Source of the DNA: Candidatus Levyibacteriota bacterium
GTDB taxonomy: Bacteria > Patescibacteriota > Microgenomatia > Levybacterales > UBA12049
Assembly: GCA_016182235.1 (NCBI GenBank)
Contig: JACOXT010000003.1
Coordinates: forward strand, 529,199 to 593,198
Direction of reading: 5' to 3'
DNA: 64,000 nt
The position numbers and the translations under genes were made by a program. Shown in pieces: positions 8,569 through 10,200 of this stretch (its first letter is position 1; each line of letters begins with the position of its first letter). Below the pieces are notes generated by a model. That model searched no databases. It was not told the DNA's origin and worked only from the letters and a program-made list of their open reading frames with translations.

Positions 8569-9324
8569 TTAAGGATTGTATATCACTCTTAGTTCTTTCT
8601 CTGTTTTATTGCCGGCTTCATCAATAGCTACAATTTTAATGTTATTTTCTCCATTTTGAAGAGATAGCCTATATGAAAAATTACCATTCCCGTCAGTTAT
8701 AGCCCAAAAACCGTTTACTGTTACTTTTATATTTGGGTCTGTTGTTCCCTGGATATCTATAATGTTTTGGTCTTTTGAAAATGATTGTCCATCGAGAGGA
8801 GAGACAAGGTTCAAATAGGGAGATTTATTTTTCATGGTTACTAGTATGGATTTAGAAAAATCGCTCTTTTTATCGTTTATAATAGCTTTTGCTTTTATAA
8901 TGTTTTCTCCCTCAGAAATGATTTCTCTAAAAGAGAAAGTTCCATCTTCTTTAACTTGTGTTTTGTCTACAAGGTCACTATTGACGTAAAGCTCTATAAT
9001 TTGCATTGGGGCAGCAAAACCCGAAAGGATTATCTCAGCGCTACTCGTTGCTGAGGGAATAGGATTCAAAACAGGAACCGGAACAAAGGCCGTTATGTTA
9101 TTCTTAGCTTCCTCTTGACTGCCTCTAGAACCCGATAGGAAAAGACTAAAATTAATTAGCAATGGAATTCCAAACTTAATTAGAATAAGAAGCACCACAA
9201 TAATCCCAAAAATGCTAAGAAATAAATTTTTCTTTGACTGTTGTTCAAGTTTTCTTGACAATCGAGATCTATTCATAGATGAATCTTGTATAATTGGTTG
9301 ATTTTGTATTTCCTCTTCGACCAT
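8569..9324 (-). CDS. membrane-anchored extracytoplasmic protein with beta-sandwich (Ig-like) repeats
   Basis: 251 aa with a charged N-terminus, one TM (LFLSIFGIIVVLLILIKFGIPLLI), then two similar beta-rich segments (...GENIIKAKAI... / ...GENNIKIVAIDEAGN...). The ATG at 9324 sits 1 nt after the tRNA-like gene. Confidence 0.45.
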   Translation of the reverse strand: MVEEEIQNQPIIQDSSMNRSRLSRKLEQQSKKNLFLSIFGIIVVLLILIKFGIPLLINFSLFLSGSRGSQEEAKNNITAFVPVPVLNPIPSATSSAEIILSGFAAPMQIIELYVNSDLVDKTQVKEDGTFSFREIISEGENIIKAKAIINDKKSDFSKSILVTMKNKSPYLNLVSPLDGQSFSKDQNIIDIQGTTDPNIKVTVNGFWAITDGNGNFSYRLSLQNGENNIKIVAIDEAGNKTEKELRVIYNP

Positions 9325-9325
9325 G

Positions 9326-9544
9326 AGCCAACGGTGGGAATCGAACCCACGACCTAGTGTTTACCCGCCTGCCTAAGCTGAGCCCTCCCGGAGAATCGAA
9401 CTCCGATCAACGGTTTACGATACCGCTGCTCTGCCACTGAGCTAGGAAGGCTATATTCTGCGGGCAGGCGAAACACTTGCTCACCCACGCTTGTCAAGCA
9501 AGCGAACTCGGCCTTCGGCCTCCGTTCCACTGAGCTACGTTGGC
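9326..9544 (-). tRNA. tRNA-like gene (Thr-type acceptor, inferred anticodon GGU) interrupted by a 39-nt D-loop insertion and a 105-nt anticodon-loop insertion
   Basis: Minus strand reads GCCAACG-TA-GCTC-[49 nt]-GAGC-A-AGTGT-TT-[105 nt]-GGT-AA-ACACT-AGGTC-GTGGG-TTCGATT-CCCAC-CGTTGGC-T. All four canonical stems are perfectly Watson-Crick and correctly spaced. Confidence 0.5.
9381..9451 (-). tRNA. tRNA-Thr (anticodon CGU), nested inside the interrupted tRNA-like gene
   Basis: GCCTTCC-TA-GCTC-AGTGGCA-GAGC-A-GCGGT-ATCGTAA-ACCGT-TGAT-CGGAG-TTCGATT-CTCCG-GGAGGGC-T. Full cloverleaf folded by hand, with one G-U pair in the acceptor. CCA is not encoded. Confidence 0.85.
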
Positions 9545-9555
9545 ATTCAGAGAAT

Positions 9556-9584
9556 ATTGTATGAAATTTGGATCTAAAGAGCAA
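9556..9584 (-). promoter_or_regulatory. candidate sigma70-type promoter for the tRNA locus
   Basis: Minus strand has TTGCTC (9584..9579), a 17-nt spacer, then TACAAT (9561..9556). The -10 ends 11 nt upstream of tRNA position 1. The promoter lies over the pyrE stop codon. Confidence 0.35.
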
Positions 9585-10200
9585 GGTTTTGAAGATACTT
9601 TTTGCCATGCCCAACAATTGTGTTTATAGGCATATTTTTCTTGCAAAAAGGACAATCTTTCTTCTCAAAAGATTGTGCTTCAAAAACACCAAGGTAAGAA
9701 AGGGGAGCGTCAACTGTTTTTGAAGTTACTTTTTTAGGATCACGATTTATCATAACACACACTTCCATTACCTTTCCATCAGCTTTTCTTATGCTTTCCA
9801 CAACCTTTCTTACAGAGCCTCCGGTAGTAGTAAGGTCCTCCAAAACCAAAACGTTCTTACCCTTAACCAATTGCTCATATCCGCGTCTAAATACCTGATT
9901 ATTGTTTTCGTCTTTTTCAGTAAAGATGCCGAGTATTTCTCTCTTTTTAAATTTTGAGAGATGATATCCAGTCCATTGTGAAAGAATAATTCCGCCTATC
10001 GAAGGCCCAACCACAACATCAATATCTTTGTTTTTAAATTTTTCTGCGAAAAGTTTACAAATCTTAGATGTTTCAAATGTATGAGGATAAAGCATATCTT
10101 TCCGAATATATACACTGCCATGTCTTTCTGAGGTATAGACAAAATGATCGTTAGTTATAATAGCTCCAATATTCTTTAATATTCTTACAACATTTGTCAT
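9574..10200 (-). CDS. pyrE: orotate phosphoribosyltransferase-like (type I PRTase)
   Basis: PRPP-binding motif VLVLEDLTTTGGS. Adjacent to and overlapping pyrF (ATGA-type coupling). The C-terminal CPFC motif is atypical. Confidence 0.7.
   Translation of the reverse strand: MTNVVRILKNIGAIITNDHFVYTSERHGSVYIRKDMLYPHTFETSKICKLFAEKFKNKDIDVVVGPSIGGIILSQWTGYHLSKFKKREILGIFTEKDENNNQVFRRGYEQLVKGKNVLVLEDLTTTGGSVRKVVESIRKADGKVMEVCVMINRDPKKVTSKTVDAPLSYLGVFEAQSFEKKDCPFCKKNMPINTIVGHGKKYLQNLAL

Follow-up and report, generated by a model that had tools for sequence, protein, structure and literature searches.

A threonine tRNA gene nested within a split threonine tRNA gene points to a palindrome-ended, tRNA-carrying cassette family in Patescibacteria

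The window analysed here is a 64-kb stretch of a contig of 600,876 bp, and all coordinates are counted within it. On its minus strand, next to a pyrE-like gene, 219 nt hold a complete tRNA-Thr(CGU) enclosed by the two halves of a second tRNA gene, which is interrupted in both its D-loop and its anticodon loop (Table 1). All the helices that the original prediction had assigned to the outer gene at 9544..9326 are present, namely the acceptor (7/7), the D stem (4/4), the anticodon stem (5/5) and a T arm (5/5) with a UUCGAUU loop, and the pairs in these outer stems are Watson-Crick throughout (21/21). The inner tRNA-Thr(CGU) was called where it had been placed, at 9451..9381, by both ARAGORN and Rfam. 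ARAGORN also called a tRNA-Thr once both insertions had been removed in silico from the outer gene, whose 3' half gave a weak local T-arm match in Rfam. The minimum-free-energy structure of the 219 nt is indeed the nested double cloverleaf (-95.2 kcal/mol, z = -3.8), and none of 200 shuffles folded equally well. Ahead of the outer 5' end, at a distance of 11 nt, is a promoter-like site that overlaps the stop codon of the pyrE-like gene (9576..9574). It scores below threshold in a consensus promoter scan; the closest relative (L026) has it, with position and sequence conserved, before its own syntenic tRNA locus, and it may be the promoter of the resident tRNA gene.

Table 1. Features of the nested tRNA locus in the window
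Feature	Position	Strand	Description
Promoter-like site, putatively of the resident tRNA gene	9556..9584	-	TTGCTC 9584..9579, 17-nt spacer, TACAAT 9561..9556; read from sequence
Outer shell, 5' part 1	9527..9544	-	Acceptor GCCAACG, U8 A9, D-stem GCTC, D-loop AGTGG
D-loop insertion	9483..9526	-	44 nt, hairpin-rich; stands where the intact orthologue has 'TA' (positions 20-21)
Outer shell, 5' part 2	9469..9482	-	D-stem GAGC, A26, anticodon-stem AGTGT, U32 U33, C34 G35
Inserted cassette	9364..9468	-	105 bp, between G35 and T36 of the resident gene
Cassette left arm	9452..9468	-	CCTGCCCGCAGAATATA; begins with the 10-nt family terminus (CCYG)2CC, whose position 10 is A here
Cargo, intact tRNA-Thr(CGU)	9381..9451	-	ARAGORN; Rfam RF00005, 59.5 bits
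Cassette right arm	9364..9380	-	CAGCTTAGGCAGGCGGG; ends with the 10-nt family terminus GG(CRGG)2
Outer shell, 3' half	9326..9363	-	U36 A37 A38, anticodon-stem ACACT, variable loop AGGTC, T arm GTGGG-TTCGATT-CCCAC, acceptor CGTTGGC, discriminator T

The sequence of the window alone permits several registers for the insertion in the anticodon loop. The register was settled between positions 35 and 36 because of an intact orthologue in L026 and 57 related elements among the matches listed. L026, whose PyrE is 77% identical and whose flanking genes are the same, carries at this locus an intact tRNA-Thr(CGU) (RF00005, 74.1 bits). With the insertion taken out at 35/36, the outer gene is 95.9% identical to this gene: the 3' halves agree at 38/38 positions, the second 5' part is identical to the same positions, and positions 1-18 differ only at position 9. 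Comparison of the filled site with the empty one reveals neither a target duplication nor a loss of target bases. The original prediction had the correct length of 105 nt, but it placed the insertion at 9470..9366, between 33 and 34, instead of 9468..9364, and its outer anticodon GGU was consequently read 2 nt off. ARAGORN does accept the GGU register in silico; it is rejected because the intact orthologue reads TTCGTAA and because family members in Ile and Arg genes, which permit no shift, have the junction at 35/36. With the insertion between 35 and 36, the outer anticodon is CG|U, that is, CGU.

The second interruption of the outer gene replaces U20-A21 of the orthologue with 44 nt, and the conserved A21 is therefore lost. 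This D-loop sequence is present once in the window. L026 has a homologous insertion of 62 nt in the D-loop of another 5' tRNA half, which survives as a remnant with neither arms nor a 3' shell. Apart from this D-loop change and one substitution, no decay is visible yet in the outer halves, which we call the shell. The outer gene is thus orthologous to an intact tRNA at the same locus in relatives and has two lesions, the splitting of its anticodon between G35 and U36 by 105 bp and the replacement of U20-A21. These lesions would be expected to abolish its function.

The cassette (9468..9364) runs from CCTGCCCGCA to GGCAGGCGGG; it has no ORF, there are no direct repeats at its junctions and no co-conversion of the flanks, and its cargo has no promoter of its own. 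The cargo shares 70% identity with the resident type of tRNA-Thr(CGU), from which it differs by many compensated changes in the stems, and 93% with the tRNA carried by an element in L152; in type, the arms agree with those of the L152 and L077 elements. The 64-kb window has no further occurrence of the termini, and the element is therefore single copy there. Relatives with the same synteny (L001, L003, L029, L210, L211 and others) have no such element at the locus. A synteny search for conserved outer halves returned mostly plain tRNA genes and a single nested case, L011, whose cargo is inserted in the D stem and which has an empty element at 35/36. Contigs with PyrE homologues that end within the tRNA region added only plain genes and one D-loop insertion.

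A metagenome scan gave at least 120 stretches, which contain at least 57 distinct elements with cargo, the same termini and the same position in the tRNA; the search pattern required an anticodon ending in U followed by AA, so that the preference for 35/36 is partly built in. The family termini are (CCYG)2CC...GG(CRGG)2, and besides cargo elements there are empty forms of 20-60 bp. Among the matches listed, the cargo has the same anticodon as the interrupted gene in 56/57 elements, the exception being a parse shift of 1 nt, and the types concerned are Ile (GAU, UAU), Thr (UGU, CGU, GGU, AGU), Arg (UCU) and Met (CAU). Cargo tRNAs of at least eight anticodons lie between these same 10-nt termini, and empty 20-bp copies interrupt initiator-type tRNA-Met genes too. 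The deepest nest among the matches listed has three levels (locus L114). An intact tRNA with an anticodon ending in U lies on the same strand within 900 nt in 82 of the 83 informative matches listed. Relative to the cargo, the termini have one orientation in 35 of the matches listed and the other in 19, and the terminal 10-mers covary as two alternative 6-bp helices, the pairs L3:R4 and L7:R8 each being Watson-Crick in 54/56 of the matches listed. The 5' junction is preceded by A, G or C across the family, and by G35 in the window. A search for a phage vector with the cargo pattern gave one viral match, an ordinary tRNA-Ser. Searches of the literature for tRNAs nested in one another, for the terminal motifs and the palindrome, and for GIY-YIG together with tRNA in candidate-phyla-radiation (CPR) bacteria found no description, and this family of tRNA-carrying cassettes is apparently undescribed.

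The shells of these elements differ in integrity from the tRNAs they enclose. The acceptor is defective or missing in 10/57 shells among the matches listed, whereas every acceptor pair (378/378) is intact across 54 inner tRNAs; anticodon-stem mismatches number 22/280 in shells versus 6/260 in inner tRNAs, again among the matches listed. Other shells in the family carry mismatches, truncations or extra hairpin insertions, and the inner tRNAs are free of such decay. In L051, L055 and L077 most or all of the 5' shell is gone and an AT-rich, promoter-like stretch lies just upstream; L083 and L117 have likewise kept the inner tRNA without most or all of the 5' shell, and L058, L076, L091 and L127 have extra element copies or deletions between copies. 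Taken together, the homologous cases are best read as shells under relaxed constraint. Nevertheless, 23/57 shells among the matches listed are perfectly intact cloverleaves, and a further 11/57, that of the window included, have perfect stems and one extra insertion in the 5' half; so many intact shells require either recent insertion or some constraint. There are 98 two-sided Watson-Crick differences between shell and cargo in the matches listed, which indicates that the two often belong to different functional lineages.

We favour the reading that a mobile, palindrome-ended cassette has disrupted and replaced a cognate tRNA gene. The outer gene would then be the original tRNA-Thr(CGU) of this genome at the pyrE-adjacent locus, now a pseudogene shell; we give this reading, taken as a whole, a probability of about 0.72. 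It agrees with one of the options of the original prediction, a recently disrupted pseudogene, and adds that the disrupting DNA belongs to a widespread family of palindrome-ended cassettes. According to this reading, a 105-bp non-coding cassette, two short arms flanking a complete foreign tRNA-Thr(CGU), would have entered exactly between anticodon positions 35 and 36, and its cargo would make good the anticodon lost by the splitting of CG|U. The cargo is presumably the functional tRNA-Thr(CGU) gene at the locus. As it has no promoter of its own, the resident promoter probably drives transcription of the whole unit; the 5' leader and 3' trailer of this transcript would consist of the shell halves and arms, and only the inner tRNA would be freed, by RNase P together with a nuclease that processes the 3' end. 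The family appears to have spread through Patescibacteria, targeting tRNA genes with an anticodon that ends in U and is followed by AA, the context required by our pattern. Because these genomes usually have one gene per anticodon, only insertions with a replacing cargo would survive, and this selection would explain the match between cargo and target anticodons. Two- and three-layer nests would arise because the cargo is itself a target. Dead shells may then decay and collect other hairpin insertions, such as the 44-nt one in the D-loop here. Of these points, the comparisons show the exactness of the insertion, what shell and cargo are, the existence of the family, the matching anticodons and the decay of shells; movement as DNA, transcription with processing, selection as the source of the match and the type of enzyme are inferred.

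The bare 20-bp palindrome, CCTGCCTGCCGGCAGGCAGG, also occurs outside tRNAs and in viral contigs of 38-70% GC. This core was found in 45 viral-contig stretches versus 5-6 for control palindromes, an excess of about 8-fold over controls of the same composition. Across 59 sites there is no consistent target-site duplication, and no target consensus beyond a purine at -1 and a pyrimidine at +1. The occurrence of the palindrome outside tRNAs and of the termini in both orientations fits a DNA element rather than an RNA signal, and the terminal inverted repeats are common to many copies in many genomes, as in MITE- or REP-like elements. GIY-YIG ORFs are enriched about 4-fold within 600 nt of the termini, with such genes within or beside the inserted DNA at the related loci L036, L108, L120 and L102, and small nucleases of this type are candidates for the inserting enzyme. 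In the window itself, an HMM search of six-frame ORFs gave no GIY-YIG match, and no transposase or nuclease was identified in the 64 kb.

The most serious rival, though an unlikely one, is that the outer halves are a selected precursor scaffold that holds leader and trailer together and aids stability or processing by RNase P and RNase Z. The fold of the nested cloverleaf (z = -3.8, and z = -4.9 for L011) and the many intact shells suit this idea, and one possible history since the divergence from L026 needs three to four transitions, each of which turned a G.U of the outer acceptor or D stem into a Watson-Crick pair. However, changes on one side of a pair relative to the inner copy mostly break it in the shells (19 mismatches against 4 G.U, with 6 Watson-Crick, among the matches listed). 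The inner tRNA persists in the five loci named above without most or all of the 5' shell, the L026 remnant has no arms and no 3' shell at all, and related plain tRNA genes need no such scaffold. A split or nicked scaffold, another option of the original prediction, has no support: the related shells lose their 5' halves and gain mismatches and insertions, and the inner tRNA stays intact.

It is more doubtful still that the insertions are a new kind of protein-dependent bacterial RNA intron, in which an endonuclease recognises the GC-rich terminal helix and the halves are ligated by a splicing pathway of the CPR. Both insertions would be removed, and one transcript would yield two tRNA-Thr(CGU) molecules here and two or three tRNAs in other nests. 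The conserved termini do pair beside both junctions and covary, the insertions are located in loops, the 23 shells that become perfect tRNAs once the element is removed would be expected, and CPR rRNA genes tolerate many short uncharacterised insertions at stem-loop tips (PMC11270868). On the other hand, shells decay and inner tRNAs do not, and efficient splicing would make needless the intact tRNA found beside almost all informative matches. The helix has a blunt base, and the junctions are located there rather than in two 3-nt bulges 4 bp apart; where a group I intron would be preceded by U, the family has A, G or C. A ribozyme core is absent: of the 105 nt of the insert 71 are tRNA, and no Rfam intron family matched. 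The same termini are found flipped and in non-tRNA DNA, viral contigs included, and the shell in the window has lost A21. The intron-containing tRNA-Thr(GGU) that had been suggested for this locus is further contradicted by its splice register, the outer gene being the orthologue of an intact tRNA-Thr(CGU).

Even less probable is that the nest was made in place by local duplication or rearrangement, for instance by hairpin-driven template switching, and inherited vertically with no mobile element. The outer and inner copies are nearly identical at L039 and L111, as this would predict. In the window, however, the two copies are only about 70% identical and differ by compensated stem changes, and cargo and arms match those of L152, where the shell is unrelated; close relatives have such elements only patchily, and the same termini surround cargo of many anticodons. 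Finally, an assembly artefact or a chance resemblance is hardly credible: the source is a metagenome-assembled genome, but two independent Logan assemblies (SRR12113420, SRR12113430) match it base for base over the part that they cover, from the outer 5' half with its D-loop insertion through the left arm into the inner tRNA, of which they include the first half, and the locus is therefore not a MAG chimera; the outer stems are fully paired, and a second nested case was reached through synteny alone (L011), with dozens more by pattern.

If the cassette reading is correct, the element is a very small selfish one, consisting of palindromic ends of about 30 bp and a tRNA gene, which becomes indispensable by destroying the sole host gene for an anticodon and supplying its own. 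Bacteria with the most reduced genomes would have, in such elements, a new route by which core genes of translation are replaced horizontally. Fragments of tRNA genes in CPR annotations, and tRNAs that are 'missing' or mis-called there, would find an explanation as well, and the shell layers would be a datable fossil record of successive invasions. The findings draw attention to the over-representation of the 20-bp palindrome across very different genomes, phage contigs included. Should the outer genes instead be spliced or act as scaffolds, they would reveal a new RNA-processing activity in bacteria, and an intron would imply protein-dependent splicing of tRNA, perhaps also of rRNA, in the CPR, which is not known in Bacteria.

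In group I introns, the last base of the 5' exon is U and the last base of the intron is G. The insert in the window also ends in G, but its pre-junction base is G35 and not U. It resembles group I tRNA introns in lying in the anticodon loop at 35/36, in the same phylum, and in being missed, as they are, by standard tRNA finders. It differs in having no ribozyme, with most of its length being tRNA; searches of the locus at the gathering threshold, and of 9280..9600 at E<=1, gave no match to group I (RF00028), group II or any other Rfam intron family. Moreover, interrupted genes of the cassette family decay, and an intact tRNA with an anticodon ending in U is nearby in 82/83 of the informative matches listed. 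Group I introns at 35/36 have been described in tRNA-Asn and tRNA-Asp of Patescibacteria (PMC13011429). The 'divergent group I introns' of Patescibacteria tRNA-Thr(GGU) in the same study are of normal group I length and, judged by their description, are probably unrelated.

Archaeal bulge-helix-bulge introns and split or permuted tRNAs (PMC4090602, PMC3978253) resemble the locus in that an insertion closed by a helix interrupts a tRNA gene; the split-tRNA leaders of Nanoarchaeum likewise have GC-rich complementary sequences next to the break, and archaeal tRNA introns are also inserted at non-canonical positions such as the D arm. The resemblance to a bulge-helix-bulge noted earlier does not hold at the junctions (35|L1 and R10|36), which are both at the base of one helix; the predicted fold has only one 3-nt bulge, whereas the archaeal motif needs two with a 4-bp helix. 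Nor are the halves split as in Nanoarchaeum, being contiguous on one strand behind a single promoter-like site. Unlike the archaeal systems, the host is bacterial, the termini are conserved in sequence and not in structure only, the insertion holds a complete tRNA with the matching anticodon, and constraint on the shells is relaxed.

The insertions in CPR rRNA genes, as described, include many short ones that have no ORF and are not introns, as well as others that encode GIY-YIG proteins, and the rRNAs still function (PMC11270868). They are found in the same phylum, at the tops and bases of stem-loops, and are likewise associated with GIY-YIG ORFs, and their compatibility with function gives RNA-level removal some precedent. 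Unlike the cassettes, they lie in genes that must stay functional and carry no replacement gene.

Among DNA elements, REP sequences, MITEs and Rickettsia palindromic elements are similarly short, non-coding, GC-rich palindromes of many sites and genomes, presumably mobilised in trans, and can sit inside genes, RNA genes included. In contrast to these repeats, the cassette has a functional gene at the centre of its palindrome, is single copy in the window, shows no target duplication there and has an identical 20-bp core in hosts of 38-70% GC. Islands and prophages that integrate at tRNA genes, classically in the anticodon or T loop, are mobile DNA that also brings replacement sequence. The cassettes are only about 100-180 bp, have no integrase or other gene and no direct att repeats, and bring a whole tRNA rather than a 3' segment, nested in the old gene rather than displacing one end of it. 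Lastly, in the tRNA cluster of phage T4, the cassette of the GIY-YIG nuclease SegB (PMC2330249) recalls several of our related loci, where a GIY-YIG gene lies between an interrupted and an intact tRNA. The element in the window has no endonuclease gene in or near it and caused no co-conversion of its flanks, but the logic implied by homing-endonuclease cassettes is the same, the selfish replacement of a resident tRNA region.

The nested tRNA structure originally predicted at 9544..9326 on the minus strand is real: an interrupted outer gene (the shell) encloses a complete tRNA-Thr(CGU) (the cargo), as claimed. Both ARAGORN and Rfam called the inner tRNA alone and missed the outer one. The prediction had proposed rescoring the spliced outer sequence and folding the whole locus. 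With both insertions deleted in silico, ARAGORN reported a tRNA-Thr, and the 219-nt locus folded as two nested cloverleaves (-95.2 kcal/mol, z = -3.8, no shuffle being equally stable). Moreover, two Logan assemblies, made independently from other runs, match the window exactly over the outer 5' half with its D-loop insertion, over the left arm and into the inner tRNA, of which half is covered. Downstream, the ATG of a gene for a 251-aa protein lies just 2 nt past the 3' end of the shell, so that any ribosome-binding site would fall within the shell's acceptor 3' strand; the gap is equally tight in L026, the closest syntenic relative. The coordinates of these and related features are listed in the table.

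Coordinates of the nested locus and of related features in other fetched loci
Feature	Location	Strand	Description
Outer 5' half	within 9544..9326	minus	acceptor 5' strand GCCAACG, U8-A9, D-stem GCTC, long D-loop
Outer segment after D-loop	within 9544..9326	minus	GAGC-A-AGTGT-TT, then helix-closed insertion
Outer 3' side	within 9544..9326	minus	AA-ACACT-AGGTC-GTGGG-TTCGATT-CCCAC-CGTTGGC-T
Inner tRNA-Thr(CGU)	9451..9381	minus	ARAGORN and Rfam, 59.5 bits
Next gene	8569-9324	minus	251-aa protein, Glucodextran_B/Ig-like domain
5' tRNA-half remnant	L026:4699-4802	plus	upstream of intact tRNA-Thr(CGU)
Three-layer nest	L114:1082-1414	plus	tRNA-Ile(GAU)
Second D-loop hairpin	L213:3140-3180	plus	also in L132, L139
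Small GIY-YIG ORF	L036:1305-1589	minus	PF01541
Small GIY-YIG ORF	L108:462-737	minus	PF01541
Small GIY-YIG ORF	L120:1023-1262	plus	PF01541
Small GIY-YIG ORF	L102:370-732	plus	PF01541
Small GIY-YIG ORF	L080:739-1200	minus	PF01541
20-bp palindrome	L184:2284-2303		viral contig
20-bp palindrome	L157:8616-8635		viral contig
20-bp palindrome	L194:515-534		viral contig

The junction sequence (TT-CG-CCTGCC...GGCAGG-CG-GG-TAA) allows several 'splice' registers. At the matching locus, L026 (PyrE 77% identical to that of the window) has an intact tRNA-Thr(CGU), GCCAACGTGGCTCAGTGGTAGAGCAAGTGTTTCGTAAACACTAGGTCGTGGGTTCGATTCCCACCGTTGGCTC, scoring 74.1 bits with RF00005. The outer gene is 95.9% identical to it (38/38 in the 3' half), and this match arises only with the insertion removed at G35|T36. 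The register is thus fixed there, and the outer gene is the resident tRNA-Thr(CGU), not the tRNA-Thr(GGU) first proposed. The size predicted for the anticodon-loop insertion was right, exactly 105 bp, but its boundaries (9470..9366) were 2 bases off, L026 placing them at 9468..9364; the target is neither duplicated nor lost. In the outer D loop, 44 nt replace the 'TA' of the L026 orthologue, so that the shell lacks A21. Among the interpretations initially offered, an intron-bearing tRNA-Thr(GGU) is ruled out by this match and register, whereas a disrupted pseudogene holds.

The resident anticodon is therefore precisely interrupted by a 105-bp element, whose foreign cargo bears an equal anticodon. 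This cargo is only 70% identical to the resident tRNA type but shares 93% identity with the UGU-anticodon cargo of an element in L152; the two elements have arms of one type (CCTGCCCGCAG..., ...AGCTTAGGCAGGCGGG), and L077 is a third member. The element was not seen at this locus in L001, L003, L029, L210 and L211 (PyrE 73-75% identical). From these comparisons, the simplest account would be that a foreign cassette recently entered the resident gene.

A synteny search using the pyrE-like gene recovered chiefly plain tRNA-Thr(CGU) genes, and one further nested case, from another Patescibacterium (L011): here the D stem holds a tRNA-bearing insertion, and at 35/36 there is an 'empty' one of 41 nt with matching ends. 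Metagenome contigs were scanned once for the right terminus with TAA behind it and, at the distance expected in a tRNA, a T loop; this gave at least 120 stretches, which parsed into at least 57 distinct elements. Their termini are 5'-CCTGCCCGCC...GGCAGGCGGG-3' or, flipped, 5'-CCCGCCTGCC...GGCGGGCAGG-3'. Each encloses an intact inner tRNA, oriented like the outer one, and lies between positions 35 and 36 of the outer tRNA, a restriction that, like that to U-ending anticodons, is partly built in because the pattern demanded TAA after the terminus; the window and L011 elements, also at 35/36, were found independently of the scan. Reading the outer anticodon as the two bases preceding the element plus T, we found it equal to the inner one in 56/57 elements among the matches listed, the exception being a 1-nt parse shift. 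The anticodons among these matches were Ile GAU and UAU, Thr UGU, CGU, GGU and AGU, Arg UCU and Met CAU, and the host contigs had 34-55% GC; the two contigs checked were both from Patescibacteria, one near Ca. Uhrbacteria. Initiator-type tRNA-Met genes are also broken by empty 20-bp copies. Elements sharing ends, site and cargo-target match also nest recursively: in L114, an intact tRNA-Ile(GAU) sits in two successive interrupted tRNA-Ile(GAU), every interrupted layer being split at 35/36 by an element of this family, the inner one with diverged termini (CCCGCCCGTC...GGGCACGG). The window element belongs to a widespread and apparently undescribed family of palindromic cassettes that carry tRNAs in CPR bacteria.

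The left end of the element consists of two CCYG units plus CC, and the right end of GG plus two CRGG units. Among the matches listed, cargo elements have without exception one T,C and one C,T end, so that L3:R4 and L7:R8 (bases of the left and right terminal 10-mers) are Watson-Crick in 54/56 each, the full 10-bp register showing one U.G and one C.A every time. Relative to the cargo, the end types take one orientation in 35 of these elements and the other in 19; two elements alike in interior arms and cargo, L033 and L038, differ only in their flipped termini. The interior arms are complementary too (e.g. CCGAAATTTT/AAAATTTCGG in the Ile family), and the smallest cargo element among the matches listed (L136) extends scarcely beyond two 10-mers around the tRNA. 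Empty forms measure 20-60 bp. Those of 20 bp, with the sequence CCTGCCTGCCGGCAGGCAGG, are perfectly palindromic, and this palindrome is found in 45 stretches of IMG/VR viral contigs (L156-L200, 38-70% GC, several multi-copy), compared with 6 and 5 for two control palindromes of the same composition. In these contigs it sits, among other places, in the variable loop of phage tRNA-fMet genes and in a tRNA D loop. It generates no target duplication, and the flanks share a purine at -1, a pyrimidine at +1 and nothing further. Element termini were not found elsewhere in the 64-kb window.

Pair statistics from the matches listed separate cargo from shell. Inner tRNAs keep 378/378 acceptor pairs, 99.6% of T-stem and 97.8% of anticodon-stem pairs. 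Among the shells, 23 are perfect, 11 have perfect stems with an extra 5'-half insertion, 13 are mismatched in the anticodon or T stem, and in 10 the acceptor 5' strand is defective or absent; anticodon-stem mismatches number 22/280 in shells versus 6/260 in inner tRNAs. Constraint on the shell is thus relaxed. One-sided shell-versus-cargo changes gave 19 mismatches, 4 G.U and 6 Watson-Crick pairs, as expected under neutral decay, and 98 two-sided Watson-Crick differences show shell and cargo to be, in many cases, separate functional lineages. In L051, L055 and L077, most or all of the 5' shell is gone, which leaves an AT-rich, promoter-like stretch directly upstream. In L127 (minus), a deletion lies between two element copies: the left end is at the D-arm site, the right end at the anticodon site and the intervening shell segment is missing, as if two copies had recombined. 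One shell in L058 (minus, ~190 nt upstream of the match) holds three copies: a tandem pair in the D arm, of which one bears cargo, and an empty third at 35/36. An intact tRNA with a U-ending anticodon lies within 900 nt on the same strand in 82/83 informative hits among the matches listed, and no interrupted gene standing alone was found among these loci.

Directly upstream of its intact tRNA-Thr(CGU), L026 carries a 5' tRNA-half remnant (GCTGATG-TA-GCTT-AGTGG-[62 nt]-A-AAGC-G-GTGGT) of a type intact in L001 and L003, from which palindromic termini and a 3' remnant are both absent. Its 62-nt D-loop insertion is homologous to the 44-nt one of the window, so that related insertions occupy two separate dead layers and earlier turnover of the locus is probable. 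D-loop hairpin insertions are frequent in shells. They include a second family with conserved ends, CAG|CTTGCCC(C)GCC...GGCGGG(G)TGAAG|TAGAAC, hosted both by shells of tRNA-Ile genes and, in a Levybacteria relative, by a tRNA-Thr gene. This suggests hairpin elements with a preference for D loops, so that independent, site-preferring insertions are favoured. Alternatively, the window insertion would have been inherited from an L026-type remnant through 3-4 transitions, each of them restoring a Watson-Crick pair. At this locus and in relatives, assemblies of short reads often stop inside a tRNA (L153 and L154, at contig ends; L210, L211, L213), two exactly at the inner anticodon loop, consistent with a cargo 3' half common to other genomes of the same samples.

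We favour, with a probability of roughly 0.72, the reading that these cassettes disrupt and replace cognate tRNA genes. If the window insertion does descend from the L026-type remnant, the outer helices would be under selection, which keeps alive the proposal that the outer halves form a precursor scaffold; this proposal also fits the stable nested fold, but loci work without shells, and we consider it unlikely. A true RNA intron is still less probable: it would fit the many intact shells and termini that covary in the manner of RNA helices, but shells decay, an intact copy is constantly present, the junction geometry is unsuited, a ribozyme is absent and the ends behave like DNA. In-place duplication is very improbable given the foreign cargo and the family with shared ends, and the exact partial copies in the Logan assemblies make an assembly artefact a negligible concern.

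Regarding mechanism, our confidence in any particular mode of mobilization is low. The element would move as DNA, since its ends are conserved in sequence, occur in both orientations and share a core found also outside tRNA genes. Selection may impose the cargo-target match, because one gene per anticodon leaves only complementing insertions viable. Transcription of the whole unit would begin at the promoter-like site of the resident gene (TTGCTC-17-TACAAT, conserved in L026), the inner tRNA alone maturing. Insertion is perhaps at hairpin tips, the sites used being anticodon, D and variable loops and the palindrome centre. Speculatively, a structure-specific nuclease such as small GIY-YIG proteins could insert the element. 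ORFs of ~80-95 residues comprising only this domain lie between the interrupted tRNA and an intact copy of it in four loci (L036, L108, L120, L102) and directly downstream of the nested locus in L080; in L120, the anticodon arm and an empty element are duplicated and flank the ORF-tRNA pair on both sides. In 1.03 Mb of fetched loci, 11/17 GIY-YIG ORFs are at most 600 nt away from a terminus; the zones so defined cover 16% of bases. The window has none.

A full-text literature search (nested tRNAs, terminal motifs, palindrome) found no description of such elements or of the 20-bp palindrome, which leaves their absence from the literature unproven. Near kinds include archaeal BHB introns, split tRNAs, islands that restore the tRNA gene in which they integrate, and REP or MITE-like palindromes. 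Group I introns at 35/36 occur in Patescibacteria tRNAs (PMC13011429), and Table 1 of the same paper reports three complete Patescibacteria genomes whose tRNA-Thr(GGU) genes have 'divergent group I introns' missed by standard models; free-standing GIY-YIG homing cassettes are exemplified by T4 SegB (PMC2330249), and CPR rRNA genes have short non-intron insertions at stem-loop tips (PMC11270868). With each of these six systems the element has one or two features in common, but it lacks defining features of each. It combines known themes, namely tRNA-targeting mobile DNA with replacement and palindromic mini-elements.
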